Position numbers and translations under genes: made by a program. The notes under the pieces were generated by a model that worked only from the letters and a program-made list of their open reading frames with translations, searched no databases and was not told where the DNA came from. DNA of 64,000 nucleotides from a virus. The stretch lies in the IMG/VR virus record IMGVR_UViG_3300042569_002054; one strand, given 5' to 3'. Shown piece by piece: positions 13,488 through 59,087 of the stretch. Within the stretch, counting starts at the first letter, position 1, and every line of letters begins with the position of its first letter.

Positions 13488-14492
13488 ATGAGTTTAGTAA
13501 CAATAAATAGTTTGGGAGGAATACCTCCTTATGTTATTTCAGTTTGTGACATATTTCAATACTCTTGTCAAACTGTGACAACAATATATGATTATATTCC
13601 ACCATCTGTTAGTTTTAATATTCCGAGTCCATATTCATCGGCTCCAAAAGTTTTAATTAAAATAGTCGATTCTACAGGATGTATTTTCACACAAGAATAT
13701 ATGTGTGTAACACCTACTCCAACCCCAAGTATTACTCCAAGTGTCACCCCGACAATTTCTTTAACTCCTTCAAATACTCCAACACCAAGTATTACACCAT
13801 CATTTACACCTACACCGAGTATCACACCAAGTATTACACCTACACAAACAGTTACACCATCACATACCCCAACACAAACAATTACTCCAACAGTTACAAG
13901 AACTCCAACACCTACAGTTACACCTGACACTCCTATTTATGCTTATTTGTTCATTGAACCATACTCAGGTTCTGCTAGTGTTGGTTCTTACATGAATTCA
14001 CTTGGTTCTAATTTTTATGGATTTACAAATACTACTAAACCAAGTAGTTCGGCTAGTACATTTGATTTAGACATGAACAAATATGTTAACTTCTCAGGAT
14101 GGACAACAGGATTATTTCCAAATATTATAAAACAATTAGTACCATCGGCAAGTAGTGGACTTGATTCATACGGTAACCCATATCTTAAATATAATTTCCC
14201 AACAACAAAAGTACCTGAAAATACGGTTGGATGTAAAGCTTGGTACACTTGGATAATACCAATTAGCAGAACCAATAATCAATACCAAGTTGAGATTGAT
14301 TTGGGAATAGTTAATCCAAATGTCTTTACAAGTGTAAAGACGGAACCGACAATTTACGCTAATACATTTACTTATACAGGTAGTACTATTGCAAATACAA
14401 CATACAGGGTTTACACAACATACCCATCAAATACATTTGAATTGGATAATACTTATGACCTTTATTTTAGAGGAAGTAAGGTTGATATATAA
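13488..14492 (+). CDS. Modular protein: about 73 aa Cys domain + Thr/Pro linker + C-terminal domain shared with 24705-25913
   Basis: N-terminus resembles 36615-36836 and 44288-44509; about 70 aa TP linker; IYAYLFIEP parallels YAYVFAEP in the paralogue. Confidence 0.7.
13709..13926 (+). repeat. Thr/Pro mucin-like linker repeat
   Basis: [30 protein letters not shown]...TPTVTP. Confidence 0.9.
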
Positions 14493-19285: not shown

Positions 19286-20530
19286 ATGAAAATTTTTATA
19301 CAAGTTGCCTCTTACAGAGACCCCCAACTAATCCCAACTATACAGTCAGCATTGGAAAATGCTAAACGACCTGAAAACTTAGTTTTTGGTATTGCTCGTC
19401 AGTTTCATCCTGATGATAATTTTGATAATTTAGATGAATATAGGAATGATGAAAGATTTAGAATAATCGATATTCCATACACCGAATCCAAAGGAGCTTG
19501 TTGGGCAAGAAATCAAATACAACAAGTATATGGTAAGGAAACTTACACTCTTCAAATTGACTCACACATGAGGTTTGCTCAAAATTGGGATGATGAGATG
19601 ATTAAGATGGTTAAACAACTTCAAAAGAAAGGATATAAGAAACCTTTATTAACAGGTTATGTTTCATCCTTTGACCCTGACAATGACCCCAACCTACGTG
19701 TTAACGAACCATGGAGAATGGCGTTTGATAGATTTATTCCTGAAGGTGCGGTTTTCTTTTTACCTGAAACAATTCCTGGTTGGCAAAATTTAACTGAACC
19801 TGTTACCGCAAGATTTTACTCGGCTCACTTCTGTTTTACTCTTGGAAAATTTGCTAAAGAAGTTCAACACGACCCTGAGTTTTATTTTCATGGTGAAGAG
19901 ATTTCAATCGCTGCAAGAGCATACACTCATGGATATGATTTATTCCACCCACATAAAGTTTTAATTTGGCATGAATATACTCGTAAGGGTAGAACTAAAC
20001 AATGGGATGACGATAAACAATGGGTTGATAAGAATAATTTTGCTCATAAGAAAAATCGTTCTCTATTCGGTATGGATGGTGAGGAAGATATGAATCACGG
20101 GAAGTATGGGTTTGGTAAAGTTAGAACTTTAAGAGATTATGAAAAATATTCAGGTCTTTTATTTTCAAAGAGAGCCGTTCAACAATATACGTTAGATAAA
20201 GGTTATCCACCAAATCCAAATAACTTCAATTCAGAAGAAGAATGGTTAAAGTCATTTACATCGGTATTCAAACATTGTATTGATATTGGGTTTACTCAAG
20301 TACCTGAAAAGGATTATGACTTTTGGGTTGTTGCGTTCCATAATGAATTAGATGAAACCATTTACAGACAAGATGCTGATAAAGGTGAGGTTGATAGAAT
20401 GTTAAGAGACCCTGATGGTTATTGTAAAGTTTGGAGAGAGTTCTTAACTGATTCAAAACCTAAATATTGGGTTGTTTGGCCTCACTCGGAATCTAAAGGA
20501 TGGTGTGATAGAATAACAGGAAATTTATAA
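19286..20530 (+). CDS. GT60-like (PF11397 GlcNAc-type) UDP-GlcNAc:polypeptide alpha-GlcNAc transferase
   Basis: IFIQVASYRDP, GACWARNQIQ, LQIDSHMRF..WD and FHGEEISIAARAYTHGYDLFHP match Gnt1/Gnt2-type motifs. Confidence 0.8.
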   Translation: MKIFIQVASYRDPQLIPTIQSALENAKRPENLVFGIARQFHPDDNFDNLDEYRNDERFRIIDIPYTESKGACWARNQIQQVYGKETYTLQIDSHMRFAQNWDDEMIKMVKQLQKKGYKKPLLTGYVSSFDPDNDPNLRVNEPWRMAFDRFIPEGAVFFLPETIPGWQNLTEPVTARFYSAHFCFTLGKFAKEVQHDPEFYFHGEEISIAARAYTHGYDLFHPHKVLIWHEYTRKGRTKQWDDDKQWVDKNNFAHKKNRSLFGMDGEEDMNHGKYGFGKVRTLRDYEKYSGLLFSKRAVQQYTLDKGYPPNPNNFNSEEEWLKSFTSVFKHCIDIGFTQVPEKDYDFWVVAFHNELDETIYRQDADKGEVDRMLRDPDGYCKVWREFLTDSKPKYWVVWPHSESKGWCDRITGNL

Positions 20531-21244: not shown

Positions 21245-22082
21245 AATAATTTCAGCAATTTATGAATTAAAATATGTTGAAGGGATTAATAGTGAAAGAT
21301 ATAAAAATTTTCCATTATTGGTTGCAACGATTAAAAACATAATTTATCCTGAATATCGTTACGTAATTTATACTGACCAAAATTCATATGATAAGTTTAA
21401 TTTAAAGTATGAATTTAATTTCCCAAATGTTGAATTTAAATTTAAAGAATTAAATACATCTGAAACTTGTGAATTAATTGACAGAATTAGAACTCAAGAA
21501 TTATCAGGTGGAATTAACTATGATAGAATTTATTGTGTAAACAATTATTTGGAAGTTGTTTTAAATAAACTTCAATTCTTAATTGATGAGTCACATGATT
21601 GTGATAATATCTTTTGGATTGATGCTGGTTTGATTGGAACATCTTGTCATGACGGGTGGAGAGATTATATGGCTCCGTTAATTAACTCAAAAAACTTTTT
21701 GGATAAGGTGGTTGATAAGATAAATCAACATGGATTTATCCATTTAAAAGGTAATTCAATTGTCATGAATTATGAAACGGTTGCTAAGTTTAACGACCTA
21801 TTTGGTGTTGAATTAAAGGTTGTTCCTGGATGTCTATTTGGTGGAACATCAGAAAAAGTTAGACATATTTTAGACGGATATTTAGACATTTTTAATCAAT
21901 ACTTAACCACACATAACCAACTTATTAGTGAACAAGAGGTTCTTACGGCTATTACAGGTAAACATTCGGATGAATGTCACGCTTTTGAATTTGGTGATTG
22001 GTTAGACTTACAAAAAGCGTTTTTAGACATTTTAGACATTTATGATGAGACAAAATATGTAAGGGAGAAGTGTTATGTTTAG
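21228..22082 (+). CDS. HtrL/YibB-like putative glycosyltransferase
   Basis: IFWIDAGL and VPGCLFGG parallel LFWIDAGL and ARGGFFGG in 22635-24305. Confidence 0.6.
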   Translation: MTNGTKIISAIYELKYVEGINSERYKNFPLLVATIKNIIYPEYRYVIYTDQNSYDKFNLKYEFNFPNVEFKFKELNTSETCELIDRIRTQELSGGINYDRIYCVNNYLEVVLNKLQFLIDESHDCDNIFWIDAGLIGTSCHDGWRDYMAPLINSKNFLDKVVDKINQHGFIHLKGNSIVMNYETVAKFNDLFGVELKVVPGCLFGGTSEKVRHILDGYLDIFNQYLTTHNQLISEQEVLTAITGKHSDECHAFEFGDWLDLQKAFLDILDIYDETKYVREKCYV

Positions 22083-22638
22083 TCTTAACATTGTTTGTAC
22101 TTCAATTGGGAGAGAAACTCTACCAAGATTAATTGAGTCATTCAAAGACCAATTAGACCCAACAGATATTTTTACAATAATCTCAGATATTAATCACGAC
22201 TTTGTTTCAGAAGTATTATCAAGATATGAGTTTAAATTCAAAGTTAATCACATATTAAATCAAGGGGAACAAAAATGGAAATACGGACATCCGTTAATTA
22301 ATGAAAACATTAATTCATTAGAAGGTGATTTTATAATGTTTGCCGATGATGATGATAGATACACTGAAGACGCATTTAAAGTAATCAAAGAAACTATTAA
22401 AGATAAAAACAAATTATACATATTCAAACACAATTGGTTAGGTGATATTAATTGGAGATTAAAAGATTTCACAAGAGGTAATGTAGGGAAATGTATGGGA
22501 GTGATTCCAAACACACATAATTTACCGATGTTCCAAGAAGATGTTTTTGGGGATGTTATTTTTTATGAAGAGATAGGTCAAATGTTTGAAAGTGAATTTG
22601 TTGATTACATAATCTATAAAGTTAGACATACGGAATGA
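22075..22638 (+). CDS. GT2-like glycosyltransferase
   Basis: LNIVCTSIGRETLPRLIES N-terminus and GDFIMFADDDD motif. Confidence 0.7.
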   Translation: MFSLNIVCTSIGRETLPRLIESFKDQLDPTDIFTIISDINHDFVSEVLSRYEFKFKVNHILNQGEQKWKYGHPLINENINSLEGDFIMFADDDDRYTEDAFKVIKETIKDKNKLYIFKHNWLGDINWRLKDFTRGNVGKCMGVIPNTHNLPMFQEDVFGDVIFYEEIGQMFESEFVDYIIYKVRHTE

Positions 22639-24305
22639 GTAATATTACATTAGTTACAGGATTGTGGAATATTGGAAGAGAAAATCTTGAAGAAGGTTGG
22701 TCTCGTTCTTTTTCACATTATTTAGAAAAATTTGAACAACTATTAAAAGTTGAAGAAAACTTAATAATTTTTGGTGAAAAGGAATTGGAGGAATTTGTTT
22801 GGGAAAGAAGAGACCAAAGTAATACCCAATTTATTTTAAGAGATAAGAGTTGGTTTGTTGAAAATGACTTTTACAATAAAATACAAGAAATTAGAAATAA
22901 TCCTGAATGGTATAATCAATCAGGGTGGTTAAAAGAATCAACACAAGGTAGATTGGAAATATACAATCCACTTGTTATGTCAAAAATGTTTATATTAAAT
23001 GATGCAAGGATTTTTGATAAGTTTAATTCAGAGTTTTTATTTTGGATTGACGCTGGACTTACAAATACTGTTCACCCCGGATATTTCACACATGATAAGG
23101 TGTTAGATAATTTAAGTAAGTATATAGATAAGTTTACATTTGTTTGTTTTCCATACGATGCAAGTAATGAGATACACGGATTTTCATATCCAAAGATTAA
23201 TCAGTGGGCTGAAGATGATGTAAAAAAAGTTGCTCGTGGTGGATTTTTTGGAGGTCCTAAAGAAACCATATCACAGATGAATGGTGAATACTATAACCTA
23301 TTGAATGATACACTATCAAGTGGGTACATGGGAACGGAAGAGTCAATATTTTCAATAATGGTTTATAAGTTAAGTGAATACATAAATTATTTTGAAATTG
23401 AATATAATGGTTTATTTGGGAAATTCTTTGAGGATTTAAAAGATGATGTTTTAGTTAAAAAGACAGAGTTTGTTAAAATTCAAAATGATTTAGATATAGA
23501 TAAAGTTGCGTTGTATGTAATAACATTCAATTCACCAAAACAATTTGAAACATTAATTAAATCTATGATTGAATATGATAGGGATTTCTTGGAAAAACCA
23601 AAGAAATTTTTATTGGATAACTCTACAGATTTATCAACAACTGAAGAATACTTAAAACTTTGTAAAGAATATGACTTTGAACATATTAAAAAAGATAACA
23701 TAGGTATTACAGGTGGAAGACAATGGACTGCGGAACACTTTGATGAAACGGGGTTGGACTATATGTTATTCTTTGAGGATGATATGTTTTTTTACTCACA
23801 AAAAAATGAAGTGTGTAGAAATGGGTTTAACAGATATGTAAGTAATCTATATCAAAAAAGTTTAGAGATAGTTAACAAAGAAAACTTTGATTTTTTAAAA
23901 TTAAATTTTTCAGAGTTTTATGGTGATAATAGTACTCAGTGGAGTTGGTATAATGTTCCACAAAATTTCAGAGAACAACATTGGCCAAAAAATCCAAGAT
24001 TACCTCAACAGGGTTTAGACCCAAATGCTCCAAAAACAAAATTCAACGAGATTAAAACACATAAAGGTTTACCATACGCTTCAGGTGAAATTTATTTGTG
24101 TAACTGGCCAATAATCCTTTCAAAAAGTGGGAGTTATAAATGTTATTTGGAAACAAAATATCAACACCCATATGAACAAACTTTAATGTCTCATAACTTC
24201 CAAAACACAATTAAAGGTAAATTAAAACCAGGTATTTTATTACTCACTCCTACCGAACATGATAGATTTGAACATTATGATAGTAATTTAAGAAAAGAAT
24301 GTTGA
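22635..24305 (+). CDS. HtrL/YibB-like domain fused to a second GT-A (GT2-like) domain
   Basis: ITLVTGLWNIGRE...YNPLVMSKMF...FWIDAG (HtrL-like), then ALYVITFNSP...FLLDNS...MLFFEDD. Confidence 0.7.
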   Translation: MSNITLVTGLWNIGRENLEEGWSRSFSHYLEKFEQLLKVEENLIIFGEKELEEFVWERRDQSNTQFILRDKSWFVENDFYNKIQEIRNNPEWYNQSGWLKESTQGRLEIYNPLVMSKMFILNDARIFDKFNSEFLFWIDAGLTNTVHPGYFTHDKVLDNLSKYIDKFTFVCFPYDASNEIHGFSYPKINQWAEDDVKKVARGGFFGGPKETISQMNGEYYNLLNDTLSSGYMGTEESIFSIMVYKLSEYINYFEIEYNGLFGKFFEDLKDDVLVKKTEFVKIQNDLDIDKVALYVITFNSPKQFETLIKSMIEYDRDFLEKPKKFLLDNSTDLSTTEEYLKLCKEYDFEHIKKDNIGITGGRQWTAEHFDETGLDYMLFFEDDMFFYSQKNEVCRNGFNRYVSNLYQKSLEIVNKENFDFLKLNFSEFYGDNSTQWSWYNVPQNFREQHWPKNPRLPQQGLDPNAPKTKFNEIKTHKGLPYASGEIYLCNWPIILSKSGSYKCYLETKYQHPYEQTLMSHNFQNTIKGKLKPGILLLTPTEHDRFEHYDSNLRKEC

Positions 24306-24334: not shown

Positions 24335-24703
24335 ATGGAATTTTTTATTAACAAAGGTGCAACACTGCCTGTTCTTAAAATGCAAGTGGTTAAAGATGGT
24401 ATTGCTGACATAACAGAGTTTATGTCATTAATAGAAAACTCGTTGATTTATTTTTCCATGATAGATGTTAAAACGGGAGGTTACAAGATTCTGAATAAGA
24501 AAGGAGGGTTTGTTGAAAAGACATTTATTGACCCAAACGCTGAGACAGAGTACTATGTTTATTATAAATTCACTTCAAGCGATACAAGTAGAGAGGGACT
24601 TTATGAAGGAGAGTTTGTTTTTATCACTGATACAGGAACTTATATTTTACCAATCAGAGAAAAACTTACGATAAAAATTGGTAATAGTTACGTATCTATT
24701 TAA
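24335..24703 (+). CDS. BppU-N-like Ig-fold baseplate-associated protein
   Basis: FFINKGATLPVL...YKFTSSDTSREGLYEGEF; paralogous to the N-terminus of the next gene. Confidence 0.55.
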   Translation: MEFFINKGATLPVLKMQVVKDGIADITEFMSLIENSLIYFSMIDVKTGGYKILNKKGGFVEKTFIDPNAETEYYVYYKFTSSDTSREGLYEGEFVFITDTGTYILPIREKLTIKIGNSYVSI

Positions 24704-24704
24704 T

Positions 24705-25913
24705 ATGGAATGGTTTATTAAGAAAAATTCAACGTTACCAGTTTTCCAAGTTGAGATATCAAAAGACGGAAGAAGTGATTTTGGTTTAGATGAAAATATT
24801 TCGGGTAATACAATTTTAATTTCGGTATATGATGAAGTTAATAAGAAATATATTGTAGCGTCTAAAGAATGTTATATTACAACAAGTGCGTCTACTGTTA
24901 ATCCTTTAGATATTACTTATTATGTAAACTATCAATTTACAAGTAGAGAAACTAAAAATGAGGGTAAGTTTTTAGTTCAGTTTTTAAAACAATCATCTCA
25001 GGGTATTGTTATTATACCATTACCTCAAAAAATTTATGTAAGTGTTCTTAGTAGTTTTAGTTTAAACTCTTACTCTTATCCGACTAATAATCCTTACATT
25101 ATTGATAGACCATGTTGTAACGCACCAGCTCTACCTGCAACACCTACACCAACACCATCTATTACTCCAAGTGTTACTCCAACAATGTCTTTAACACCAT
25201 CACTAACTCCAACTCTCACACCTACAACAACTACAACACCTACATTTACTCCTACACCATCTATTACAACACCACAATATTATGCTTATGTATTCGCAGA
25301 ACCACAAGATTCTTCGGCAAGTGGTTCGTTGTATGGATTAGGAAGTTATATGTATTACTTATCGGATGGTATAACACCTGATACTAATGTTAATTGGTAC
25401 GGATGGGGTAACTCGGGAGCTCTTCCATTACCAACAAATCCAAACTACAGTTATATGATGAACAAATACTCATCATACTCAGGATTTACAGGTGGAACAG
25501 GAAACTTTGTTAAACCTACAGACTTAAAAGGTGCGTTAAATCAATTCCCAAATACTATCAATGATAGTTTTGGATGTTTAATTAACCAATACACTTTTGA
25601 AACAATAGAAGTTAATAATAGTGATATTAACACTAGTTTACAGTACATGTATACGATTTGGATACCACTTGATGGTGTCGGAGGAACTTTAAATAATATG
25701 AGTGTAAATGTTGGTTATCAATCACAACCTTGTGACTTTGATATTTTAGCAACTCCTGACCCTAAAATTTCGGTTGGGGATATTACAATAACTCCAGGTG
25801 GAGCGATACCTGCGGGAACTTATAGAGTATTATACTTATCAAACGATGGATTGTTACCTCCAAAACTTCCTGATAATAACAATTATTATTTCAAAGGGGT
25901 GTATAAAACCTAA
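24705..25913 (+). CDS. BppU-N-like domain + Thr/Pro linker + domain shared with 13488-14492
   Basis: Start moved to ATG 24705 (MEWFIKKNSTLP); TP linker at about 25133-25275. Confidence 0.7.
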   Translation: MEWFIKKNSTLPVFQVEISKDGRSDFGLDENISGNTILISVYDEVNKKYIVASKECYITTSASTVNPLDITYYVNYQFTSRETKNEGKFLVQFLKQSSQGIVIIPLPQKIYVSVLSSFSLNSYSYPTNNPYIIDRPCCNAPALPATPTPTPSITPSVTPTMSLTPSLTPTLTPTTTTTPTFTPTPSITTPQYYAYVFAEPQDSSASGSLYGLGSYMYYLSDGITPDTNVNWYGWGNSGALPLPTNPNYSYMMNKYSSYSGFTGGTGNFVKPTDLKGALNQFPNTINDSFGCLINQYTFETIEVNNSDINTSLQYMYTIWIPLDGVGGTLNNMSVNVGYQSQPCDFDILATPDPKISVGDITITPGGAIPAGTYRVLYLSNDGLLPPKLPDNNNYYFKGVYKT

Positions 25914-25943: not shown

Positions 25944-28900
25944 ATGGCAATACCGTATCAAAATCCAATAAGTGCGTCCCAAATTACAGGACCTTTCAGT
26001 GTAGCGAGAACAAGTCCATACGGAACCAATTTTAATGTTTTAAATGTTGGTGGATGGCAAGAGGCGGCATACCTTACTAATTTAGGTTTAACATTTAGTG
26101 GGCAAGGACAACAACAATTAAGTGTTAATAATATACCTATTAATATTAACATTGGTAACGGTACATTTTCTCCAACATATTTAACTTTAAATTCTGACAA
26201 TTTCTCTTCGGGTAGAAGAAGATTGGGTATGATTGTTTGGGTTAATGAAACTGAAACGGCATATCAATATCAAATAGACAATTACAATGATTTATGGGAT
26301 GCTGCAGTAAGTGCTAATTCTGTAACTCAATTATCTTACGAAACTATTATAAAGAATAATACACCTGAAGGTCAGGCATTTATTAATGCTTGGACAGGCT
26401 CAACTATTGAAGGTGTTAGTGGTGTTACAAGAGAAAATGCGAGATGGAGAGTTTTTGCTCAAGGTACTGAATTAACGGGTGGTACTTATTTTTCAGGTAC
26501 AAGTACATTAGAATTATATAATAGTGATGGAACTATTATTTCTGTAACAGGTATTACGGCATCTGGTTCTAATGGTAGTTCTGGAACATCAGGTTCTGCG
26601 GGTACAAGTGGTTCTTCAGGAAGTGCTGGTTCTTCAGGTAACTCTGGTTCTTCAGGTTCAGCAGGTACAAGTGGAACTTCAGGTAGTTCTGGTTCATCAG
26701 GTAGTTCTGGTTCTGCGGGTACATCAGGAACAAGTGGAACGTCTGGTTCATCAGGGGATAGCGGTTCTTCGGGAAGTGCTGGAACTAGCGGTAGTTCAGG
26801 TAGTGCTGGAACATCAGGTATTAATGGTGTTGATGGTGCAAGTGGAACATCAGGTACAAGTGGTTCATCAGGACTATCAGGTACTGGAGGTTCTTCGGGT
26901 ACATCAGGAACATCTGGCTCCTCAGGTTCATCAGGTTCTTCAGGAAGTGTGGGAACAAGTGGAACGTCAGGTTCTTCGGGAAGTTCTGGTACAAGCGGAA
27001 CTTCAGGAACTTCAGGTTCAAGTGGTTCATCGGGAAGTTCAGGTTCAAGTGGTTCATCGGGTACATCAGGTAGTACTGGTACTAGTGGTAGTAGTGGAAC
27101 AAGCGGAACGTCGGGTTCATCAGGTTCTGCGGGAAGTAGTGGTTTATCAGGTAGTGTTGGAACATCTGGCTCAAGTGGTAGTTCAGGTAGTTCTGGTTCA
27201 TCAGGTACATCTGGCTCAAGTGGTAGCTCTGGTTCAACAGGTTCGTCAGGTAGTAGTGGTATAACTGGGTCTTCAGGTACGAGTGGTAGTTCTGGCACAT
27301 CAGGTTCATCTGGTAGTTCAGGTTCTTCAGGTTCATCTGGTAGTTCAGGTTCTTCAGGTAGTACTGGTTCATCAGGAACTAGCGGAACATCAGGAACATC
27401 AGGTACAAGTGGTAGTTCAGGTTCTACAGGAACATCGGGTTCTACAGGAACATCGGGTTCATCAGGTAGTAGTGGCTCAAGTGGAAGTTCAGGATTGACA
27501 GGTTCATCAGGAACATCGGGTTCATCAGGGACATCGGGTTCATCAGGTAGTTCTGGTTCAAGTGGTAGTAGCGGAAGTACAGGGTCTTCGGGCACAAGTG
27601 GTAGTTCTGGTACATCAGGTTCATCAGGAAGTTCAGGTTCATCAGGTTCTAGCGGTAGTGTTGGAACTTCGGGAACAAGTGGTTCAAGTGGAAGTTCAGG
27701 TTCTTCAGGAAGTGTAGGAACATCAGGTACAAGTGGAAGTTCAGGTTCGTCTGGCTCAAGTGGAAATACAGGTTCAAGTGGAACGAGTGGTTCATCAGGT
27801 ACATCTGGCTCAAGTGGTAGTTCAGGTTCGTCTGGCTCAAGTGGTTCAAGTGGAAGTTCAGGTTCATCTGGAAGTGTAGGAACATCAGGTACAAGTGGTA
27901 GTTCAGGTTCTTCAGGTAGTTCAGGTGTTAATGGTTCTTCAGGGACTAGTGGTAGTTCGGGAACATCTGGTTCTTCAGGAAGTTCGGGTTCATCAGGTTC
28001 TAGTGGTAGTTCAGGAACATCTGGCTCAAGCGGGTCTTCTGGTTCAAGTGGAAGTACTGGTTCTTCAGGAAGTGCAGGTACATCGGGTAGTGTAGGAACT
28101 AGCGGTAGTTCTGGTTCATCTGGTTCTTCAGGTAGTACTGGCTCAAGTGGTACTTCAGGTTCTTCGGGAAGTTCTGGTACTAGTGGTTCATCAGGTAGTG
28201 TAGGTACTAGTGGTTCATCAGGTAGTTCTGGTTCAAGTGGTAGTAGCGGAAGTACAGGGTCTTCTGGTACAAGTGGGAGCTCAGGAACATCTGGTACAAG
28301 CGGTAGTTCTGGGTCATCTGGTTCAGTTGGTACAAGCGGTTCATCAGGTAGTGTTGGAACATCTGGTTCATCAGGTTCTGTTGGTACTTCAGGAACATCG
28401 GGTTCATCAGGTAGTACTGGTTCAAGTGGAAGTTCAGGAAGTAGTGGTAGTGTAGGAACAAGTGGTTCTTCAGGGACATCTGGCTCAACAGGTACTTCAG
28501 GAACATCAGGTTCAAGTGGGTCTTCAGGTAGTTCGGGTTCATCAGGAAGTTCAGGTACAAGCGGAACATCAGGTTCAGTAGGAACAAGTGGTTCATCGGG
28601 AAGTTCAGGGTCAACAGGAACTTCAGGTTCAAGTGGGTCTTCAGGTAGTTCAGGAAGTAGCGGAACATCTGGTTCTAGTGGAAGTGTTGGAACTTCTGGT
28701 ACATCAGGAACAAGTGGTTCATCGGGAAGTTCTGGTTCTGCCGGTACAAGTGGAAGTGTAGGAACAAGTGGTACTTCAGGTTCATCTGGCTCAAGTGGAA
28801 GTTCAGGTTCAACAGGTAGTTCAGGTACTAGCGGTTCATCTGGAAGTTCTGGTTCTGCAGGTACAAGTGGAAGTTCTGGTTCTTCAGGTAGTACGGGTTC

Positions 28901-31900
28901 AAGAGGAACTAGCGGAACATCAGGAAGTTCTGGTTCTGTTGGAACTAGTGGAACGTCTGGTTCAGTAGGAACTAGCGGAACATCTGGAACAAGTGGTTCA
29001 TCAGGTTCTAGCGGTAGCGCTGGAAGCTCAGGAACGTCAGGTTCTAGCGGTAGCACAGGTTCAAGTGGTTCTACTGGCACGTCAGGTTCTTCAGGAACAA
29101 GTGGTTCTGTAGGTACAAGCGGAACATCTGGTTCCTCAGGAAGTGTAGGTACTTCAGGTACTAGTGGAAGCTCAGGAAGTGTAGGAACATCTGGTTCAAG
29201 TGGTACTACTGGTACCTCAGGAACATCAGGTAGTTCAGGTTCTAGCGGAAGTTCAGGTTCAAGTGGAACTAGTGGTAGTTCAGGAAGTTCTGGTTCATCG
29301 GGTAGTAGCGGTAGTTCTGGTAGTGTAGGAACATCTGGTTCTTCAGGAAGTTCTGGTTCAAGTGGTTCATCCGGAAGTTCAGGTTCTACAGGTTCAAGAG
29401 GAACATCGGGTACTTCAGGAACTAGCGGTTCAAGTGGAAGTACAGGAACTAGTGGTACATCAGGTTCAACGGGGACTTCAGGAACAAGTGGTTCAACTGG
29501 AACATCAGGTACAAGTGGAAGTACAGGGTCTTCAGGAAGCTCTGGTACGTCGGGTAGTGTAGGTACTAGCGGTAGTTCAGGCTCTAGCGGAAGTACAGGA
29601 ACTAGTGGAACCTCTGGTTCAACAGGGACTAGCGGTTCATCAGGTAGTTCAGGTTCAAGTGGAAGTTCAGGTAGTAGTGGTAGCGTTGGAACTTCTGGTA
29701 CATCAGGTTCAAGTGGTTCTTCAGGAAGTGCAGGTTCTAGTGGAAGTACTGGAACCTCAGGAACATCAGGTAGTTCTGGTTCTTCAGGTAGTTCAGGTTC
29801 AAGTGGTAGTGTTGGAACATCAGGTTCATCGGGTAGTGTAGGTACTAGCGGTTCTTCTGGTTCAAGTGGAAGTTCAGGTTCTAGCGGAAGTACAGGGTCA
29901 AGCGGAACTAGTGGTAATTCAGGTTCGTCTGGTTCAAGTGGAAGTTCAGGTTCATCTGGAAGTGTAGGAACAAGTGGAACCTCAGGTTCAGTAGGTACAA
30001 GTGGTACATCAGGAAGTTCAGGCTCAAGTGGTAGTACGGGTTCATCTGGTACTAGCGGCTCTTCGGGAAGTACTGGGTCATCTGGAAGTTCAGGTTCAAC
30101 AGGAACTAGCGGTTCTTCAGGAACATCAGGTAGTAGCGGTTCTAGTGGTAGTGCTGGAACAAGTGGTAGTTCTGGTTCTGTTGGTACATCTGGGTCAAGC
30201 GGAAGTAGTGGTTCATCGGGAAGTGTAGGCACATCCGGTTCTTCAGGCTCTAGCGGTAGTGCTGGAAGTTCAGGAAGTGTTGGTACATCAGGGACTAGTG
30301 GTAGTTCAGGTTCTTCTGGTTCAAGTGGTAGTGTTGGTACATCAGGTACTAGCGGTTCATCAGGTACTAGCGGTTCATCAGGGTCAAGCGGAACTAGCGG
30401 TAGTTCAGGTTCTAGCGGTTCTTCAGGAAGTTCTGGGTCATCTGGCTCTTCAGGTAGTACAGGTTCAAGAGGAACTAGCGGTACTTCAGGAACTAGTGGT
30501 AGTGTAGGTACATCCGGTTCTTCAGGTAGTTCGGGAACATCAGGAAGTAGTGGAAGTTCAGGTTCTGCAGGTACAAGTGGAAGTGTAGGAACATCTGGAA
30601 CTTCTGGTTCAAGTGGGTCATCAGGTTCAAGTGGTAGTGTTGGAACTAGCGGTTCATCAGGAACAAGTGGTTCGTCAGGTTCTAGCGGTAGTGCTGGAAG
30701 CTCAGGAAGTACTGGTTCATCAGGTTCTGCGGGAAGTGCTGGTACATCAGGGGTTAATGGTTCTTCAGGAACATCAGGTTCTGCTGGCTCAAGTGGAAGT
30801 TCAGGTTCTTCAGGTAGTTCGGGTTCAGTAGGTACAAGCGGAACTTCAGGTTCATCAGGTAGTGCTGGCTCGTCAGGGTCTAGCGGTTCTGTTGGTACTT
30901 CAGGTAGTAGTGGAACATCTGGAAGCTCTGGCTCAAGTGGTAGTGCGGGTTCATCAGGGAGTAGTGGAACTTCAGGTTCATCAGGAAGTTCAGGTTCAAG
31001 TGGTAGTACGGGGTCTTCAGGAAGTTCTGGTTCAACAGGTTCTAGAGGAACTAGCGGAACATCAGGTTCATCTGGAAGTGTTGGTACTTCAGGAACGTCA
31101 GGTTCAGTAGGTTCGTCTGGTTCTTCAGGAACTTCAGGTTCAGTAGGTACTAGTGGAACATCTGGAAGCTCTGGCTCAAGTGGTAGTGCGGGGTCATCAG
31201 GGAGTACTGGTACAAGTGGAAGTTCGGGTTCAACTGGTACTTCAGGTTCAAGTGGAAGTAGTGGCTCATCAGGTTCTTCAGGGAGTACTGGTACAAGTGG
31301 AACATCAGGTTCTAGTGGAAGTAGTGGTAGTTCAGGGTCATCTGGTTCTGCAGGTACATCAGGAAGTAGTGGAAGTTCAGGGTCTAGCGGTAGTTCTGGT
31401 TCATCAGGTACATCGGGAACTAGCGGAAGTTCAGGAACTTCAGGTAGTAGTGGGTCATCAGGTTCAACGGGTAGTTCAGGAAGTAGTGGAACAAGTGGTT
31501 CATCTGGTACTTCAGGTTCATCTGGCTCAAGTGGTAGTACGGGTTCTTCAGGAAGCTCAGGCTCAAGCGGAAGTTCTGGTTCAACAGGTTCTAGAGGAAC
31601 AAGTGGAACTTCTGGTTCGTCAGGAACTAGCGGAACGTCAGGAACATCAGGCTCAAGCGGAAGTGTTGGAACATCTGGTTCGTCAGGAAGTACAGGAACA
31701 TCAGGTAGTGCTGGTTCTTCTGGCTCAAGTGGTAGTTCAGGTTCAAGTGGAAGTACTGGAACATCAGGTTCATCAGGTTCTAGCGGTAGTACTGGAAGCT
31801 CAGGAACGTCAGGTTCTGTAGGTACAAGCGGGACATCAGGAACTTCGGGAAGTACTGGTTCTAGTGGTAGTTCAGGAAGTTCTGGTTCATCGGGTAGTAC

Positions 31901-33251
31901 AGGTACTTCAGGAAGCTCAGGTTCAAGTGGAACTAGTGGTTCTTCAGGGTCTAGCGGTTCATCGGGTTCTAGTGGAAGTTCAGGGTCATCTGGTAGTACA
32001 GGTTCAAGAGGAACTAGCGGTACTTCAGGAACTAGTGGTAGCTCAGGAACATCTGGTTCTTCGGGTACATCAGGGTCAGGTGGTTCTTCAGGAAGTAGTG
32101 GTAGTTCTGGAACTTCAGGTTCTTCAGGAACAAGCGGAAGCTCAGGAACATCAGGTTCAAGTGGAAGCACGGGTAGTTCAGGCTCGTCAGGTAATACTGG
32201 AAGTTCTGGTACATCGGGTTCTTCGGGTACAAGTGGTTCTTCTGGGTCATCAGGCTCAAGTGGGAATACTGGTTCTTCGGGAACTTCTGGTTCATCAGGA
32301 ACTAGCGGTTCTTCAGGAAGTTCAGGTTCAAGTGGTAATACAGGTTCTTCGGGTACTAGCGGTTCATCAGGTTCTTCTGGCTCATCAGGTTCAAGTGGAA
32401 GCTCAGGTTCTTCAGGTATTACAGGAAGTAGTGGAACTAGCGGTTCTTCAGGAAGTGCTGGTTCATCAGGTAGCTCAGGTTCAGGTTCATCAGGAACAAG
32501 CGGATTAGATGGTATTAGTGGAACATCTGGTTCATCAGGTACATCTGGCTCAAGTGGTAGCTCTGGTTCAACAGGTTCGTCAGGTAGTAGTGGTATAACT
32601 GGGTCTTCAGGTACGAGTGGTAGTTCGGGAACATCAGGTTCATCGGGAACAAGTGGTTCTAGTGGAAGTTCGGGTTCTTCAGGTAGTTCGGGGTCTAGCG
32701 GAAGTACGGGTTCAAGAGGAACAAGTGGTTCATCAGGCACATCAGGTAGTCAAGGTAATAAAGGTGGTCTTCAATACCAATACGGTGGTGGGACAGGAGG
32801 TGCACCTGCTTCAGGTCAATTTACTTATCAAGGAGCGGGTGTAGCGGTGTATGATTTGAAATTTGACGTAGTAACTGCTGACTCAGCAGATTTAAGTGAT
32901 TATTTTTTAAACTTAGTTGGAACACAAGGGATTGTATATTTAATTTTTAATTTAAATGGTTCAAATAAAATTGATATTTACTACTTCAACAATGTAAGTG
33001 TAAGTGGTAGTGATTATTTGTTTACAGGTGCATTATATACAAATGGTGGTGATACAACACTTACAGTAAATGACGTATGTGCAGTTACTATTATTGTTAA
33101 CGGTACATCTGGAACATCAGGTTCATCAGGTACTTCAGGTTCATCGGGTATTACTGGTTCATCAGGTACCTCAGGAGCTGCAGGAGCTGCGGGTGGAACA
33201 TTCACATTAGGACTTGTTTATACAACAGCAAACAATTTTAACTTTATATAA
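25944..33251 (+). CDS. Giant (2435 aa) Pro-free collagen-like Gly-X-Y Ser/Thr-rich fibre protein
   Basis: About 200 aa N-terminal domain paralogous to 14502; about 2066 aa of Gly-X-Y; short globular C-terminal region with a second short GSS tract. Confidence 0.85.
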   Translation: MAIPYQNPISASQITGPFSVARTSPYGTNFNVLNVGGWQEAAYLTNLGLTFSGQGQQQLSVNNIPININIGNGTFSPTYLTLNSDNFSSGRRRLGMIVWVNETETAYQYQIDNYNDLWDAAVSANSVTQLSYETIIKNNTPEGQAFINAWTGSTIEGVSGVTRENARWRVFAQGTELTGGTYFSGTSTLELYNSDGTIISVTGITASGSNGSSGTSGSAGTSGSSGSAGSSGNSGSSGSAGTSGTSGSSGSSGSSGSAGTSGTSGTSGSSGDSGSSGSAGTSGSSGSAGTSGINGVDGASGTSGTSGSSGLSGTGGSSGTSGTSGSSGSSGSSGSVGTSGTSGSSGSSGTSGTSGTSGSSGSSGSSGSSGSSGTSGSTGTSGSSGTSGTSGSSGSAGSSGLSGSVGTSGSSGSSGSSGSSGTSGSSGSSGSTGSSGSSGITGSSGTSGSSGTSGSSGSSGSSGSSGSSGSSGSTGSSGTSGTSGTSGTSGSSGSTGTSGSTGTSGSSGSSGSSGSSGLTGSSGTSGSSGTSGSSGSSGSSGSSGSTGSSGTSGSSGTSGSSGSSGSSGSSGSVGTSGTSGSSGSSGSSGSVGTSGTSGSSGSSGSSGNTGSSGTSGSSGTSGSSGSSGSSGSSGSSGSSGSSGSVGTSGTSGSSGSSGSSGVNGSSGTSGSSGTSGSSGSSGSSGSSGSSGTSGSSGSSGSSGSTGSSGSAGTSGSVGTSGSSGSSGSSGSTGSSGTSGSSGSSGTSGSSGSVGTSGSSGSSGSSGSSGSTGSSGTSGSSGTSGTSGSSGSSGSVGTSGSSGSVGTSGSSGSVGTSGTSGSSGSTGSSGSSGSSGSVGTSGSSGTSGSTGTSGTSGSSGSSGSSGSSGSSGTSGTSGSVGTSGSSGSSGSTGTSGSSGSSGSSGSSGTSGSSGSVGTSGTSGTSGSSGSSGSAGTSGSVGTSGTSGSSGSSGSSGSTGSSGTSGSSGSSGSAGTSGSSGSSGSTGSRGTSGTSGSSGSVGTSGTSGSVGTSGTSGTSGSSGSSGSAGSSGTSGSSGSTGSSGSTGTSGSSGTSGSVGTSGTSGSSGSVGTSGTSGSSGSVGTSGSSGTTGTSGTSGSSGSSGSSGSSGTSGSSGSSGSSGSSGSSGSVGTSGSSGSSGSSGSSGSSGSTGSRGTSGTSGTSGSSGSTGTSGTSGSTGTSGTSGSTGTSGTSGSTGSSGSSGTSGSVGTSGSSGSSGSTGTSGTSGSTGTSGSSGSSGSSGSSGSSGSVGTSGTSGSSGSSGSAGSSGSTGTSGTSGSSGSSGSSGSSGSVGTSGSSGSVGTSGSSGSSGSSGSSGSTGSSGTSGNSGSSGSSGSSGSSGSVGTSGTSGSVGTSGTSGSSGSSGSTGSSGTSGSSGSTGSSGSSGSTGTSGSSGTSGSSGSSGSAGTSGSSGSVGTSGSSGSSGSSGSVGTSGSSGSSGSAGSSGSVGTSGTSGSSGSSGSSGSVGTSGTSGSSGTSGSSGSSGTSGSSGSSGSSGSSGSSGSSGSTGSRGTSGTSGTSGSVGTSGSSGSSGTSGSSGSSGSAGTSGSVGTSGTSGSSGSSGSSGSVGTSGSSGTSGSSGSSGSAGSSGSTGSSGSAGSAGTSGVNGSSGTSGSAGSSGSSGSSGSSGSVGTSGTSGSSGSAGSSGSSGSVGTSGSSGTSGSSGSSGSAGSSGSSGTSGSSGSSGSSGSTGSSGSSGSTGSRGTSGTSGSSGSVGTSGTSGSVGSSGSSGTSGSVGTSGTSGSSGSSGSAGSSGSTGTSGSSGSTGTSGSSGSSGSSGSSGSTGTSGTSGSSGSSGSSGSSGSAGTSGSSGSSGSSGSSGSSGTSGTSGSSGTSGSSGSSGSTGSSGSSGTSGSSGTSGSSGSSGSTGSSGSSGSSGSSGSTGSRGTSGTSGSSGTSGTSGTSGSSGSVGTSGSSGSTGTSGSAGSSGSSGSSGSSGSTGTSGSSGSSGSTGSSGTSGSVGTSGTSGTSGSTGSSGSSGSSGSSGSTGTSGSSGSSGTSGSSGSSGSSGSSGSSGSSGSTGSRGTSGTSGTSGSSGTSGSSGTSGSGGSSGSSGSSGTSGSSGTSGSSGTSGSSGSTGSSGSSGNTGSSGTSGSSGTSGSSGSSGSSGNTGSSGTSGSSGTSGSSGSSGSSGNTGSSGTSGSSGSSGSSGSSGSSGSSGITGSSGTSGSSGSAGSSGSSGSGSSGTSGLDGISGTSGSSGTSGSSGSSGSTGSSGSSGITGSSGTSGSSGTSGSSGTSGSSGSSGSSGSSGSSGSTGSRGTSGSSGTSGSQGNKGGLQYQYGGGTGGAPASGQFTYQGAGVAVYDLKFDVVTADSADLSDYFLNLVGTQGIVYLIFNLNGSNKIDIYYFNNVSVSGSDYLFTGALYTNGGDTTLTVNDVCAVTIIVNGTSGTSGSSGTSGSSGITGSSGTSGAAGAAGGTFTLGLVYTTANNFNFI
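27192..27292 (+). repeat. 101-bp exact direct repeat, copy 1 (copy 2 at 32526-32626)
   Basis: Base-by-base identity checked by eye. Confidence 0.85.
32526..32626 (+). repeat. 101-bp exact direct repeat, copy 2
   Basis: Identical to 27192-27292. Confidence 0.85.
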
Positions 33252-33898: not shown

Positions 33899-34801
33899 AT
33901 GATTGACTATTACAATTTAGCTGACAATCAATATCACAATCAAGTCTATACTGGACCAATAGGTACCAGTGCCTCTTTAAGTACTTTTTATTGGGTTAAA
34001 CCAAGAGGTATTACTATGGTACATATTACCGCTATTGGTGCCGGAGGTGGAGGAGCTTCGGGTAACCAATCTACGGGTACTGCGGCTTCAGGCGGTAGTG
34101 GTGGTGGTTCGGGGGCAATAACTCGATTAACAATACCTGCTATTTTATTATCTGAAAGTTTAAAAGTAACTGTTGGTGCTGGAGGTACGGGTGGTACAGG
34201 AGGTTCAGGAGGCACGAATGGTGCGTCGACATATGTTGATATCGCAAGAGGGGATACGACTGCTATCCAAACTCGTGTAGTATTCGCGGCCGCGGGTTCC
34301 GGTGGAAACGTAGGTTTGGCTGGTGGAGCCTCTGCCGGTGGAGGTGCAGGAGCAATTGCAACTCAAGGAAACGCAATTTATCTAACAATGGGTACTTTTG
34401 TGTCTATCGCTGGACAAGCAGGTGCGGGAGGTGTCAATGCTGCCGCTGGAGGTTCAATAACTGTTACGTCGTCAGGATTACCAATAACAGGTGGGGCTGC
34501 CGGTGGTGGAAAAAGTGCCGCTGACGGGAATTTTGCTGGTGGTAGTATAACTGGAAGTGGAACAATACCTACAATCTCAGGAGGTGCTGGTGGTGCGACA
34601 AATAATGGGGCAAGTGGTATTTTTATAAACTTACCTTTTTTCTCATTAGGAGGAGCTGGTGGTGGTTCTTTTGCTCTTGGAACTGCTGGTAATGGTGGAA
34701 AAGGTGGAATTGGTTGTGGAGGAGGAGGTGGGGGTTCAGGAACCACACGTGGTAGTGGTGGAGATGGAGGACCTGGGATGGTAATAATAACTTGTTGGTA
34801 A
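33899..34801 (+). CDS. Glycine-rich adhesin-like protein, paralogue 1
   Basis: YWVKPRGITMVHITAIGAGGGG ... GGDGGPGMVIITCW. Confidence 0.7.
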   Translation: MIDYYNLADNQYHNQVYTGPIGTSASLSTFYWVKPRGITMVHITAIGAGGGGASGNQSTGTAASGGSGGGSGAITRLTIPAILLSESLKVTVGAGGTGGTGGSGGTNGASTYVDIARGDTTAIQTRVVFAAAGSGGNVGLAGGASAGGGAGAIATQGNAIYLTMGTFVSIAGQAGAGGVNAAAGGSITVTSSGLPITGGAAGGGKSAADGNFAGGSITGSGTIPTISGGAGGATNNGASGIFINLPFFSLGGAGGGSFALGTAGNGGKGGIGCGGGGGGSGTTRGSGGDGGPGMVIITCW

Positions 34802-34813
34802 TTTGTATGTAAT

Positions 34814-35686
34814 ATGAGTTTTGTATATGATTTAGCGGATACTAGTTATAAGACACAAGTGTTCTATCAGTCGGGAAGTTGGATAAAACCTCAAGGTATA
34901 ACTATGATATCCATTACTGCTATTAGTGCTGGTGGTGGGGGAGCTGGTGGTGCTACTAACTCATCTGCAAATAATAGGTCAGGAGGTGGAGGTGGTGGAG
35001 GTGGATGTTTAACTAGATTAATTATTCCTGAAATTTTTATAACAGATTCTTTGATAATAAATGTAGGTACTGGAGGTGCTGGGGGAGTATCGAGTGGAGG
35101 AGCTGGAAGTAATGGAGGTCCTACATTTGTTGATATGCCTGTTCCTGGTAATACTGATATATATACACGTATTATAACCACTTCAGGTGGTACTGGAGGT
35201 AATGGAGCAACTGCTGGTAATGGAGGCTCCACCGCTAACGTTGCAGACGCATTATACTCAACGATTGGAGTTTGGACAACAATTGCAGGCCTTGGTGGAG
35301 GTGCAGGGACAACAACTAATGGAACTTCACTTACATGGGGTTCTCTTGGTATGTTATATGGGGGTGCTGGTGGAGGGGGTATGGCGGCAGGAGCTACCAC
35401 ACCAACAAATGGAGGAAATTTAACAGGTGCAGGTATAGTCCCTACAAATACTGGAGGACAGTCAGGTGGTGCAGGTAGTGTAGGGGTATTTTCATTAACC
35501 CCATTCTATTCTATTGCAGGAAGTGGTGGTGGAGGAGGTGGTACTACACCTGCTTCAGGTGGAGCAGGTGGTGATGGAAACATTGGTACTGGTGGTGGAG
35601 GTGGTGGTGCTGGTACCACACCTACAGGTGTTGGAGGGACAGGAGGACGTGGAGGTGATGGTTTAGTAATAATACAGTGTTGGTAA
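34814..35686 (+). CDS. Glycine-rich adhesin-like protein, paralogue 2
   Basis: WIKPQGITMISITAISAGGGG ... GGDGLVIIQCW. Confidence 0.7.
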   Translation: MSFVYDLADTSYKTQVFYQSGSWIKPQGITMISITAISAGGGGAGGATNSSANNRSGGGGGGGGCLTRLIIPEIFITDSLIINVGTGGAGGVSSGGAGSNGGPTFVDMPVPGNTDIYTRIITTSGGTGGNGATAGNGGSTANVADALYSTIGVWTTIAGLGGGAGTTTNGTSLTWGSLGMLYGGAGGGGMAAGATTPTNGGNLTGAGIVPTNTGGQSGGAGSVGVFSLTPFYSIAGSGGGGGGTTPASGGAGGDGNIGTGGGGGGAGTTPTGVGGTGGRGGDGLVIIQCW

Positions 35687-35696
35687 AAATTTAATT

Positions 35697-36605
35697 ATGG
35701 ATTTTGCATATAATTTAACAAATAACGCTCACAAAACGCAAATATATTATACTGCGGGTCAATATGCTTACACTTTACCTAAAGGTATAACTATGGTCTA
35801 TATCTTATGTATGGGTGCAGGAGGTGGAGGAGGAGGTGGATTTACTCGAGCCGCTGGTTCAGCTGGTGGTGGAGGTGGAGGTGGAGGAACAGGTGCTCTT
35901 ACTCGTGTAGTTATACCTAAAATTTTTCTATCAGATAGTTTACTCATATTGGTTGGTACGGGAGGACCAGGTGGTGCTGGTGGTAATCCTGCAACTGCGG
36001 GTACTGCTGGTGGTCAATCAATTGTTAGTACTAACTTAGGTGGTACGGTGGCATTAAACAATTTATATATTGCTCAGGCTAATGGTGGTAGTGCCGGAAA
36101 TCCTGGAACAGGTGCTGCGGGTGGTACAGGAGGTGCGGGAGGTACCGCGACAACTAATACAGGTATGGGTATGGTGTCATTAGGAACATTTACAAATAGA
36201 ATTGGTATAACAGGTGGAGATGGTAACGCAACTGCTTCACCACTTGCTGGTGTATATGGAACAGGTTCTATACCATTTTCTGCTGGACGAGGTGGAGGTG
36301 GTATAAATGCGGCAAACCCTGGTACAAGTGCAAATGGTGGGTCAATATCGGGTAGAGGTTTTGTTGTTGATGTTGTTGGAGGAGCCGCGGCTGGTGGGGC
36401 AGGTGTTAATGGAATGTTTATGATGAAACCATTTGTTAGTCTTGGAGGTACAGGTGGTGCTAGTAACAATGCTGGTGTGGGAGGTGTTGGTGGTAAAGGG
36501 GGTCCTGGGTGCGGAGGTGGGGGAGGAGGTGCTGGAACATCTCTATCTGCTGGTGGTGCTGGAGGTCCTGGTGGTGATGGTTTAGTAATTGTAACTTGTT
36601 GGTAA
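35697..36605 (+). CDS. Glycine-rich adhesin-like protein, paralogue 3
   Basis: YTLPKGITMVYILCMGAGGGG ... GGDGLVIVTCW. Confidence 0.7.
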   Translation: MDFAYNLTNNAHKTQIYYTAGQYAYTLPKGITMVYILCMGAGGGGGGGFTRAAGSAGGGGGGGGTGALTRVVIPKIFLSDSLLILVGTGGPGGAGGNPATAGTAGGQSIVSTNLGGTVALNNLYIAQANGGSAGNPGTGAAGGTGGAGGTATTNTGMGMVSLGTFTNRIGITGGDGNATASPLAGVYGTGSIPFSAGRGGGGINAANPGTSANGGSISGRGFVVDVVGGAAAGGAGVNGMFMMKPFVSLGGTGGASNNAGVGGVGGKGGPGCGGGGGGAGTSLSAGGAGGPGGDGLVIVTCW

Positions 36606-58653: not shown

Positions 58654-59087
58654 GTTTTTACAAAGAAATTAGCCCAATATTTGAGTACTTACATCAAGTA
58701 AGGAAACTTGAAAACTATATTGTTTTTGATGTTTTATTTTCTAAAACATGGAAAATACCAAAAAAATATATAGTTGAAGATAAATTTTTAAACAATGGAA
58801 CATTAGAGGATAAATTATATTTATCATTTGTTTCTGATTTTGATGAAAATAATCTTAACTTGATTCAAAATAATATATTAGGTATTGTTAGATACAATTT
58901 AGAAAGAGAGGCTAAAGAAAAATTATTTGAAGATAGAGTTTCTGAACTTAAAAATATCTTTGATAAAGAAAATTTAGAAAATCTTAAAAAATTAAAATTT
59001 GAATTAACACAAAATGTTTTAGTTGACAATGGACAAAGGCAAGGAAATACAGAAACAACTGGAATCTCTCAACTCATTGAGGAATAA
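58650..59087 (+). CDS. Hypothetical protein
   Basis: 145 aa, ATGA-coupled. Confidence 0.6.
   Translation: MSFYKEISPIFEYLHQVRKLENYIVFDVLFSKTWKIPKKYIVEDKFLNNGTLEDKLYLSFVSDFDENNLNLIQNNILGIVRYNLEREAKEKLFEDRVSELKNIFDKENLENLKKLKFELTQNVLVDNGQRQGNTETTGISQLIEE

Follow-up and report, generated by a model that had tools for sequence, protein, structure and literature searches.

A long proline-free Gly-X-Y array in a putative tail fibre of a large freshwater phage

What kind of protein keeps glycine at every third position for roughly 2,000 residues, fills the positions between almost entirely with serine and threonine, and does so without a single proline? The question is raised by an open reading frame (ORF) in IMG/VR virus record IMGVR_UViG_3300042569_002054, of which we analysed a stretch of 64,000 nucleotides (the window). 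An earlier note on this DNA had described an ORF of 2,435 amino acids (aa) at 25944-33251, with about 688 Gly-X-Y triplets, a register break near 32478, and X and Y positions occupied nearly always by Ser or Thr and never by Pro. That description was borne out: the translation is uninterrupted, 690 triplets precede a non-repeat knob and 701 are present overall, the break lies exactly at 32481-32486, and X and Y together are 92% Ser/Thr with no Pro in the array. We propose that the gene probably encodes a very long collagen-like tail fibre, whose three-chain helix would act as a tether of a large freshwater myovirus.

A Gly-X-Y array in strict register

The first and longest run of the array (Table 1) carries Ser at 445 and Thr at 196 of its 658 X positions, with a few Asn, Ile, Val and Leu, whereas its Y positions hold 526 Ser, 53 Thr, 40 Val, 25 Ala and 6 Arg. 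The commonest triplets of the array are GSS (326), GTS (194), GST (45), GSV (40) and GSA (25). All 8 Pro of the protein are confined to the N-terminal domain and the knob, and charged residues make up about 1% of the array (7 Arg, 3 Asp, 1 Lys and no Glu). The Pfam Collagen family (PF01391) matches residues 353-752 with 200.3 bits against a gathering score of 27.2, and a PDB sequence search with the array retrieved only animal collagens, matching through their Gly positions. Local G+C over the array is 44-49%, compared with about 30% in the flanks. We assigned the plus frame because of its conserved N-terminal domain, its conserved knob and the orientation of the gene; a minus-strand ORF of 2,084 aa was rejected as a real gene, since the repeat itself gives rise to it. 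Promoter and terminator scans around the fibre gene gave nothing better than shuffled controls.

Glycine occupies 690 of 690 register positions, while the third base of its codon is free to vary (GGT 57%, GGA 32%, GGC 5%, GGG 6%). Because Gly is never replaced while the third base varies, its retention is far beyond chance, and the codon pattern points to strong purifying selection on the register. Between the window and its orthologue in the nearest relative, a contig that we call G001, all nine Gly-codon changes fall at the third base, and the sole indel inside the aligned block is 18 nt long, which is two whole triplets. Across 45 non-identical family proteins, short interruptions number 34 in 11,349 triplets and comprise 13 one-residue deletions, 18 Gly-to-Ala changes and 3 ten-residue inserts. 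Among interruptions that shift the register, the window's own type, SGSGSSG, is the most frequent in the family (13 of the 34). All 18 Gly-to-Ala changes occur in one protein and keep the register; in that protein (L066, 10001-20032; ORF residues 2532-3107) the altered triplet is ATS, and its copies are mostly 5-20 triplets apart, often 9, a pattern that looks like deliberate weak points or hinges.

X and Y are non-equivalent and chemically distinct throughout the family, as residue counts from 44 diverged proteins (10,578 triplets) show. Thr occurs 5,622 times at X and 418 times at Y, and Ile (300 and 0), Leu (82 and 1) and Glu (46 and 1) lean the same way; Asp (37 at X and 1,017 at Y), Asn (40 and 169) and Arg (2 and 12) lean the other. 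Pro fills just 2 of the 21,156 X/Y positions, even though a single substitution can turn Ser and Thr codons into Pro codons and the PT linkers of this phage are rich in it. The placing of Leu at X and of Arg at Y recalls animal collagens. So does Glu at X (PMC13138384), whereas Thr at X is unlike animal collagens. The window's array shows no higher-order period, its autocorrelation staying at or below 0.14 at lags of 1-40 triplets. Together, the fixed Gly register, the distinct X and Y positions and the lack of a super-period favour a regular, linear structure with a three-residue period and argue against both a featureless linker and a bundle or solenoid of fixed coil length.

The alternative that survives best, although we consider it unlikely, is that the array is a disordered and probably heavily O-glycosylated mucin-like brush or entropic spacer that holds the knob away from the virion or shields the particle. 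With Gly plus 92% Ser/Thr at X and Y, few hydrophobic or charged residues and no Pro, the array has the composition of a typical flexible linker; the genome also holds many glycosyltransferase (GT) genes, array length varies freely among close relatives, and one family protein (P0049) tolerates a register break about every 11 residues. A disordered linker, however, has no reason to preserve a Gly register over 658-1,168 triplets while third bases drift, nor to keep X and Y distinct in 44 diverged proteins, nor to exclude Pro. Classical mucin domains are rich in Pro and have no fixed register, whereas the array keeps a strict three-residue register and avoids Pro in a phage whose linkers are otherwise of the PT type.

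Far less probable is another glycine-dependent fold, a polyglycine-II (PGII) bundle or a beta-solenoid, possibly with the ice- or water-ordering surface that the earlier note had entertained. PGII proteins do share Gly tripeptide periodicity and small side chains with the array; in the snow-flea antifreeze protein (sfAFP) and the T-even gp38 tips, short PGII helices of fixed length are joined by turns. Three neighbouring genes at 33899-36605 also carry glycine-rich PF21722 domains. Bundles and solenoids need such fixed-length helices or coils and the turns between them, whereas the array has neither a turn motif nor a constant super-period: tandem periods at all multiples of 9 nt between 9 and 81 are present in it, and the differences between orthologues, such as the 18-nt indel, come in whole triplets. 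A bundle of 2,000-3,500 residues without turn motifs is implausible, and an ice-binding role finds no support.

Anchor, knob and genomic setting

The collagen-like fibre that we favour is bounded by non-repeat modules, and its neighbourhood bears on where in a virion it might sit (Table 1). Over its first 190 aa the protein shares 47% identity with the N-terminus of a 665-aa fibre encoded upstream. A profile of this anchor, built from the two fibres and searched against 1.84 billion representatives, matched 239 clusters; in nearly all of the 150 hits listed the domain begins at residue 1 and is followed by unrelated shafts and tips, the anchor being conserved and the distal parts variable. The anchor has no Pfam match, no PDB match by sequence profile, no neighbour at E <= 0.001 in a fold search with its AlphaFold (AF2) model (predicted local distance difference test, pLDDT, 64.5) and no tblastn match in 50,697 GenBank phage records, even at E <= 10. 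Since it is absent from Pfam, the PDB and GenBank phages, the family is known from metagenomes only.

Table 1. Positions of the fibre gene, its parts and its neighbours in the window
Feature	Coordinates	Strand	Remarks
Adaptor paralogue	13488..14492	+	upstream of the short fibre; C-terminal domain paralogous to that of 24678-25913
Short paralogous fibre, 665 aa	14502..16499	+	same N-domain, different C-terminal domain; about 50 triplets by eye
GT60-like N-acetylglucosamine (GlcNAc) transferase (PF11397)	19286..20530	+	fibre neighbour by position
GT2-like gene	22075..22638	+	fibre neighbour
HtrL/YibB-like gene and a further GT-like part	22635..24305	+	fibre neighbour
Adaptor gene, PT-rich linker and conserved C-terminal domain	24678..25913	+	directly upstream of the fibre
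Giant fibre gene	25944..33251	+	2,435 aa, 202.7 kDa, isoelectric point 4.6; open without a stop
N-terminal anchor domain, aa 1-207	25944..26564	+	conserved core of about 190 aa; invariant SSGRRRxGM motif
Gly-X-Y run 1, aa 208-2181	26565..32486	+	658 unbroken triplets, Pro-free; script scan of the Gly register
101-nt exact direct repeat, copy 1	27192..27292	+	only long exact repeat; also in G001
Register break, aa 2180/2181	32481..32486	+	GS dipeptide instead of a triplet (...GSS-GS-GSS...); one residue missing
Gly-X-Y run 2, aa 2181-2276	32484..32771	+	32 triplets; script scan
101-nt exact direct repeat, copy 2	32526..32626	+	just past the register break; absent from G001
Non-repeat knob, 110 aa, aa 2277-2386	32772..33101	+	predicted all-beta; entry junction QGxKGGLQYxY
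Gly-X-Y run 3, aa 2387-2419	33102..33200	+	11 triplets; script scan
C-terminal tail, 16 aa	33201..33248	+	after run 3

The knob is bounded by Gly-X-Y on both sides in two further family proteins (P0299 and P0301) and on its C-terminal side in a third (P0320), and the version in G001 is 80% identical to that of the window. Its AF2 model is an all-beta domain (pLDDT 78.5). Fold searches with it returned no significant neighbour (best Foldseek E 0.06; best VIA-align Z 5.4, within noise), and its likeness to trimeric viral fibre heads and TNF-like folds is weak and non-significant (Foldseek E about 0.1, best Z 5.4). With collagen-type segments on both sides, the position of the predicted domain would suit a trimeric knob carried by a rod of three chains. 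The family as a whole has a beads-on-a-string architecture, in which long Gly-X-Y runs are parted by a few reusable globular modules. P0049 (1,104 aa) carries a Gly/Ser/Thr tract with an 11-residue period made of three triplets plus GS.

We also scanned IMG/VR DNA directly and took counts from the best 80 related loci. In about 56 of these 80, with or without an array, a gene for the adaptor's C-terminal domain ends just ahead of the fibre start, so adaptor and anchor form a conserved two-gene unit. The short fibre matches PF01391 with 65.3 bits, and its PHROG 'tail fibre' matches fall largely on the Gly-X-Y part.

The window lies within a 101.6-kb viral contig of 34% CheckV completeness. Baseplate wedge genes resembling gp25 and gp6 stand just upstream of it (genome 7,339-9,667), fibre-like and glycine-rich tail genes flank the giant ORF on either side, large structural ORFs in the window include SprB repeats, LamG and PA14 domains, and replication genes follow further on; the contig has no tRNA gene. 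This gene content marks the locus as the tail-fibre (baseplate/fibre) module of a fragment of a large myovirus. The same setting bears on whether the protein might instead be a virion fibre other than a host-capture tail fibre, on the head or neck or wound around the tail, serving aggregation, attachment to particles or protection. Hair-like appendages on the head have been described in jumbo phages of Bacteroidota, such as Tenacibaculum phages PTm1 and PTm5 (as cited in PMC13282480), and the N-terminal domain has no homology to any characterised baseplate-binding domain. Yet the gene sits in a run that begins with baseplate wedge genes and holds fibre- and tail-protein-like genes, with no head gene nearby, and we regard a placement other than the host-capture tail fibre as quite improbable.

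Two large structural ORFs, at 11280-13460 and 36883-38913, carry SprB repeats (PF13573), the repeat of a gliding-motility adhesin of Bacteroidota. They hint at host-derived adhesin modules in the virion, and together with the low G+C they suggest a host in the Bacteroidota. The three PF21722 genes downstream of the fibre are tandem paralogues of about 300 aa, each ending in ...CW. Their PHROG matches are to tail-fibre-assembly or minor-tail families, and they may form fibre tips or help to assemble the fibres.

Array length and its turnover among relatives

Could the length of the array be an assembly artefact, either because the true gene is far shorter or because sequences of several strains were joined into a chimera? 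Of the 80 related loci, 69 carry a Pro-free Ser/Thr array right after the anchor, and 58 of those 69 stop at a contig end inside it; no Logan contig covers the whole array of the window, a 101-nt exact repeat flanks most of it, and one relative (L009) has a probably mis-assembled end. These points speak for an artefact. The array DNA itself, however, is not a recent amplification. Its units are imperfect, with an internal similarity of 72-85%; Tandem Repeats Finder reports every period that is a multiple of 9 nt from 9 to 81, at 60-90% matches; just 157 of 6,017 31-mers are repeated and the longest exact repeat is 101 nt; and the choice of Gly, Ser and Thr codons equals that of other large genes in the window.

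Data from lake metagenomes also speak to the assembly. The fibre stretch is present in 20 lake-water metagenome runs from 2020-2025, four of which were mapped onto the window. In these four, contigs from the interior of the array (for example 28235-29014, 29278-29725, 30102-30937, 31163-31890 and 32597-33140) match perfectly, at a depth like that of the flanks, for instance 16-28x inside against 18-24x outside in one run (X1), and 83-116x against 75-88x in another (X2). Because interior depth equals that of the unique flanks in these four runs, which date from 2020-2025, the interior is single-copy and has been stable over years. The right junction of the second 101-nt copy is backed by contigs from X2 and a further run (X9) that start at 32597. 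Logan contigs also show many 'joints', but the sides of these are only 20-26 nt long, and they probably come from other repeats or other organisms. Assemblies of relatives from independent metagenomes agree with one another, giving 4,766 aa twice and 1,998 aa three times, and the first 2.9 kb of the gene are colinear with G001 at 96-98% identity. The array is not an obvious assembly artefact, and we judge an artefactual length to be very improbable.

Recombination between the two 101-nt copies would remove 5,334 nt (592 triplets and the GS dipeptide). The fibre that remained would still be in register and, at about 657 aa, would match the short paralogue in size. In X1 and X9, run 3 has a variant form at positions 33142-33188, which differs by several substitutions and by indels that compensate each other and preserve the frame (+TGG, +A, -1); it is a strain allele affecting the fibre's distal end. 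The window and the genome record differ by a single base at position 58796.

A survey of repeat length in relatives, which the earlier note had called for, found the array in independent assemblies, with 341-1,432 triplets in complete ORFs. The upper value belongs to G001, a 240.8-kb contig that matches the window at 96% identity in the flanks and encodes an orthologue of 4,766 aa with 1,432 triplets and a longest unbroken run of 1,168; a contig from another metagenome (G002) encodes the same 4,766-aa orthologue with one residue different. The other complete ORFs (L055, L065, L007/8/10, L026 and L066) hold 341-892 triplets. Beyond the colinear first 2.9 kb, the arrays of the window and G001 are no longer alignable, so array content and length turn over much faster than the anchor.

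From protein databases the array had at first seemed unique to this phage, a reading that the IMG/VR DNA scan overturned. The anchor profile had found at least 10 triplets in only 7 of the 150 relatives listed, the array was present in 0 of 32 long relatives, and other long collagen-like proteins in those databases reach at most 245 triplets. Arrays break assemblies and are therefore hidden from protein catalogues. One genome, G006 (294,914 bp, 98% complete), both starts (1-1,324) and ends (294,786-294,910) inside its Gly-X-Y array; as it ends there, the assembly of a probably circularly permuted genome must have broken within the array. The fibre gene of genomes like this one is never called whole.

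Sugar enzymes, known collagens and a possible tether

The earlier note had suggested that the fibre may need glycosylation by the adjacent GTs, and this part of its proposal fared poorly. The GT cluster lies between the two fibre genes and adjoins the giant fibre only in the closest relatives (L004-L011); it is not beside the fibre in the 61 more distant array-bearing loci. Its PF11397 gene is also present in G010 (309 kb, 100% complete), a genome with no Ser/Thr array. The genes not being conserved neighbours, we rejected their adjacency as evidence for fibre glycosylation. The only DNA matches in GenBank phage records were two Xanthomonas jumbo phages, which match the GT60-like gene.

Another enzyme, encoded outside the window, is the best candidate for a sugar coat. 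TIGR04414 (TibC/Aah) matches the genome record at G000:81795-82808 with 263.8 bits against a cut-off of 200, within a 710-aa GT4+GT9 fusion (genome 80,694-82,826) in which PF01075 is found as well. Enzymes of the TibC/Aah family transfer heptose onto protein serines in the cytoplasm, which would make this putative heptosyltransferase the best placed to coat a Ser-rich stalk. A TibC/Aah-type enzyme also occurs in the array-bearing G001, G011 and G006 and is absent from G010, which is complete and array-less, and from G012. With co-occurrence in few genomes, we treat the enzyme as a lead, not a result. Our literature search found no paper on phage TibC-like enzymes. The fusion belongs to a second sugar island (genome 75,612-82,826; L002 113-7327) outside the window, which also holds a DegT-type aminotransferase fragment, a hexapeptide acyltransferase, a 578-aa GT2 and two unknown ORFs.

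Collagen-like phage fibres are already known, and what sets the present array apart is a Pro-free Ser/Thr chemistry of this length. In work on collagen-like fibre proteins from prophages, Ghosh et al. 2012 (PMC3368898) showed stable triple helices that are not glycosylated, melt at 42 C and are flanked by trimerisation domains. Among them, EPclA and EPclB of E. coli O157:H7 (PMC3368898) share the plan of the window's fibre: a fibre domain at the N-terminus and a stalk of (Gly-X-Y)n, with non-collagen modules on its flanks. Both have been demonstrated to trimerise into triple helices that contain no hydroxyproline and carry no sugars. Their collagen segments consist of tens of triplets with Pro and charged residues, compared with 701 triplets here (1,432 in the relative), 0 Pro and about 1% charge. 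The EPcl-type domains PF08400 and PF06820 have no match in the window's fibre, and its N- and C-domains are unrelated to theirs.

Outside phages, the cuticle collagen of Riftia is a triple helix of micrometre length and low Pro content, believed to owe its stability to glycosylated Thr. It resembles the window's fibre in its great length and scarcity of Pro; unlike it, it is an animal extracellular protein with no phage context, carries galactose on Thr at Y, and still contains Pro and hydroxyproline. The BclA repeat is built on GPT, so that Pro takes X and Thr takes Y, and runs to at most about 76 triplets. BclA forms a Thr-rich, hydroxyproline-free, O-glycosylated collagen-like filament with a globular trimeric end on the exosporium of Bacillus anthracis (PDB 1wck; PMC8968730); in the window's family, by contrast, X is Thr or Ser, Y is Ser and Pro is missing, and the knob has no significant similarity to the BclA-type C1q/TNF-like domain. 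Mimivirus fibril proteins (PMC8968730, PMC9614988) likewise combine viral collagen-like proteins with virus-encoded glycosylation enzymes, but they belong to a eukaryotic giant virus, are glycosylated on hydroxylysine, and have much shorter, Pro-containing repeats. Our literature searches turned up no paper on phage collagens of the Pro-free Ser/Thr kind and none describing collagen in jumbo phages of aquatic habitats; a 2026 jumbo-phage review and a paper on aquatic Bacteroidota 'moraphages' are both silent on collagen.

How might a collagen-like tail fibre of this kind be built? The 190-aa N-terminal domain would dock the fibre to the baseplate through the adaptor encoded upstream, the array of about 2,070 residues, Gly-(Ser/Thr)-Ser, would form the stalk, and the small beta-rich knob and 11 further triplets would form the distal end. 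Three chains would be kept in register by the anchor and adaptor at one end and the knob at the other. At the rise of a collagen-type helix, about 0.286 nm per residue, the stalk would be a thin thread of about 0.6 micrometre; in G001 the longest run would reach about 1.0 micrometre and the whole about 1.2 micrometres. Imino-poor collagen tends towards 10/3 symmetry (PMC13138384). The helix, having neither proline nor charge pairs, would more likely be held by hydroxyl-mediated hydration, and O-glycosylation of serines, with the phage's TibC/Aah-type heptosyltransferase as candidate enzyme, may stabilise it further. Prolyl isomerisation limits the folding of collagen; because it is slow, the exclusion of Pro might, as a speculation, speed the zipping of so long a helix. 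As a tether, the thread would let the phage catch host cells over a wider radius in dilute lake water, and its length would evolve fast as whole triplets are gained and lost. In Smoluchowski kinetics the adsorption rate scales with capture radius, so for a large, slow virion and cells of about 0.5 micrometre such a thread could raise the encounter rate several-fold.

The trimer, the triple helix, the virion position, the tether function and glycosylation are all features that we infer. The filament of about 600 nm proposed in the earlier note still gives the best account of the PF01391 match, the selection on Gly, the X/Y asymmetry and the lack of a super-period; its triple helix is the part that stays conditional.

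Several observations nevertheless weigh against our interpretation. Collagens that lack hydroxylation are known to be stabilised in two ways, by proline and by charged pairs (PMC8968730, PMC13138384), both of which are missing from the array; Thr prefers X in this family, unlike bacterial collagens, which place it at Y (PMC8968730). P0049 has a GS insertion about every 11 residues, and an unbroken triple helix could not accommodate breaks at that spacing; some Gly/Ser tracts of the family must therefore be something other than collagen. The register could partly be kept mechanically, by slippage in units of 9 nt. No read or Logan contig covers the whole array in this phage. The virion position is judged from synteny, and the contig is 34% complete and has no capsid or terminase gene. 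The link between enzyme and array comes from about two independent lineages with both and one with neither.

A bolder version of the proposal, which we offer tentatively as possible rather than probable, is that these arrays are true triple helices with an all-hydroxyl Gly-(Thr/Ser)-Ser chemistry, a third solution to the problem of helix stability. In that case they would probably be O-heptosylated on Ser by a phage-encoded TibC-type enzyme, would actively exclude Pro, and would serve freshwater jumbo phages as fast-evolving capture tethers; at 0.6-1.2 micrometres, no longer collagen-type helix would be known outside animals.

Imino acids, hydroxyproline or networks of charges are generally regarded as a requirement for a stable triple helix, and none of these is present in up to 1,168 triplets of perfect register. 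If the array is a helix, it would therefore imply new stability rules for collagen, and it would offer biomaterials a simple, uncharged rod that can be decorated with sugars and programmed in length. Because these arrays break assemblies and are nearly invisible in protein databases, the class is systematically under-counted. If the proposal holds, fibres several times the length of the virion would change estimates of encounter rates for large, slow phages in dilute waters.

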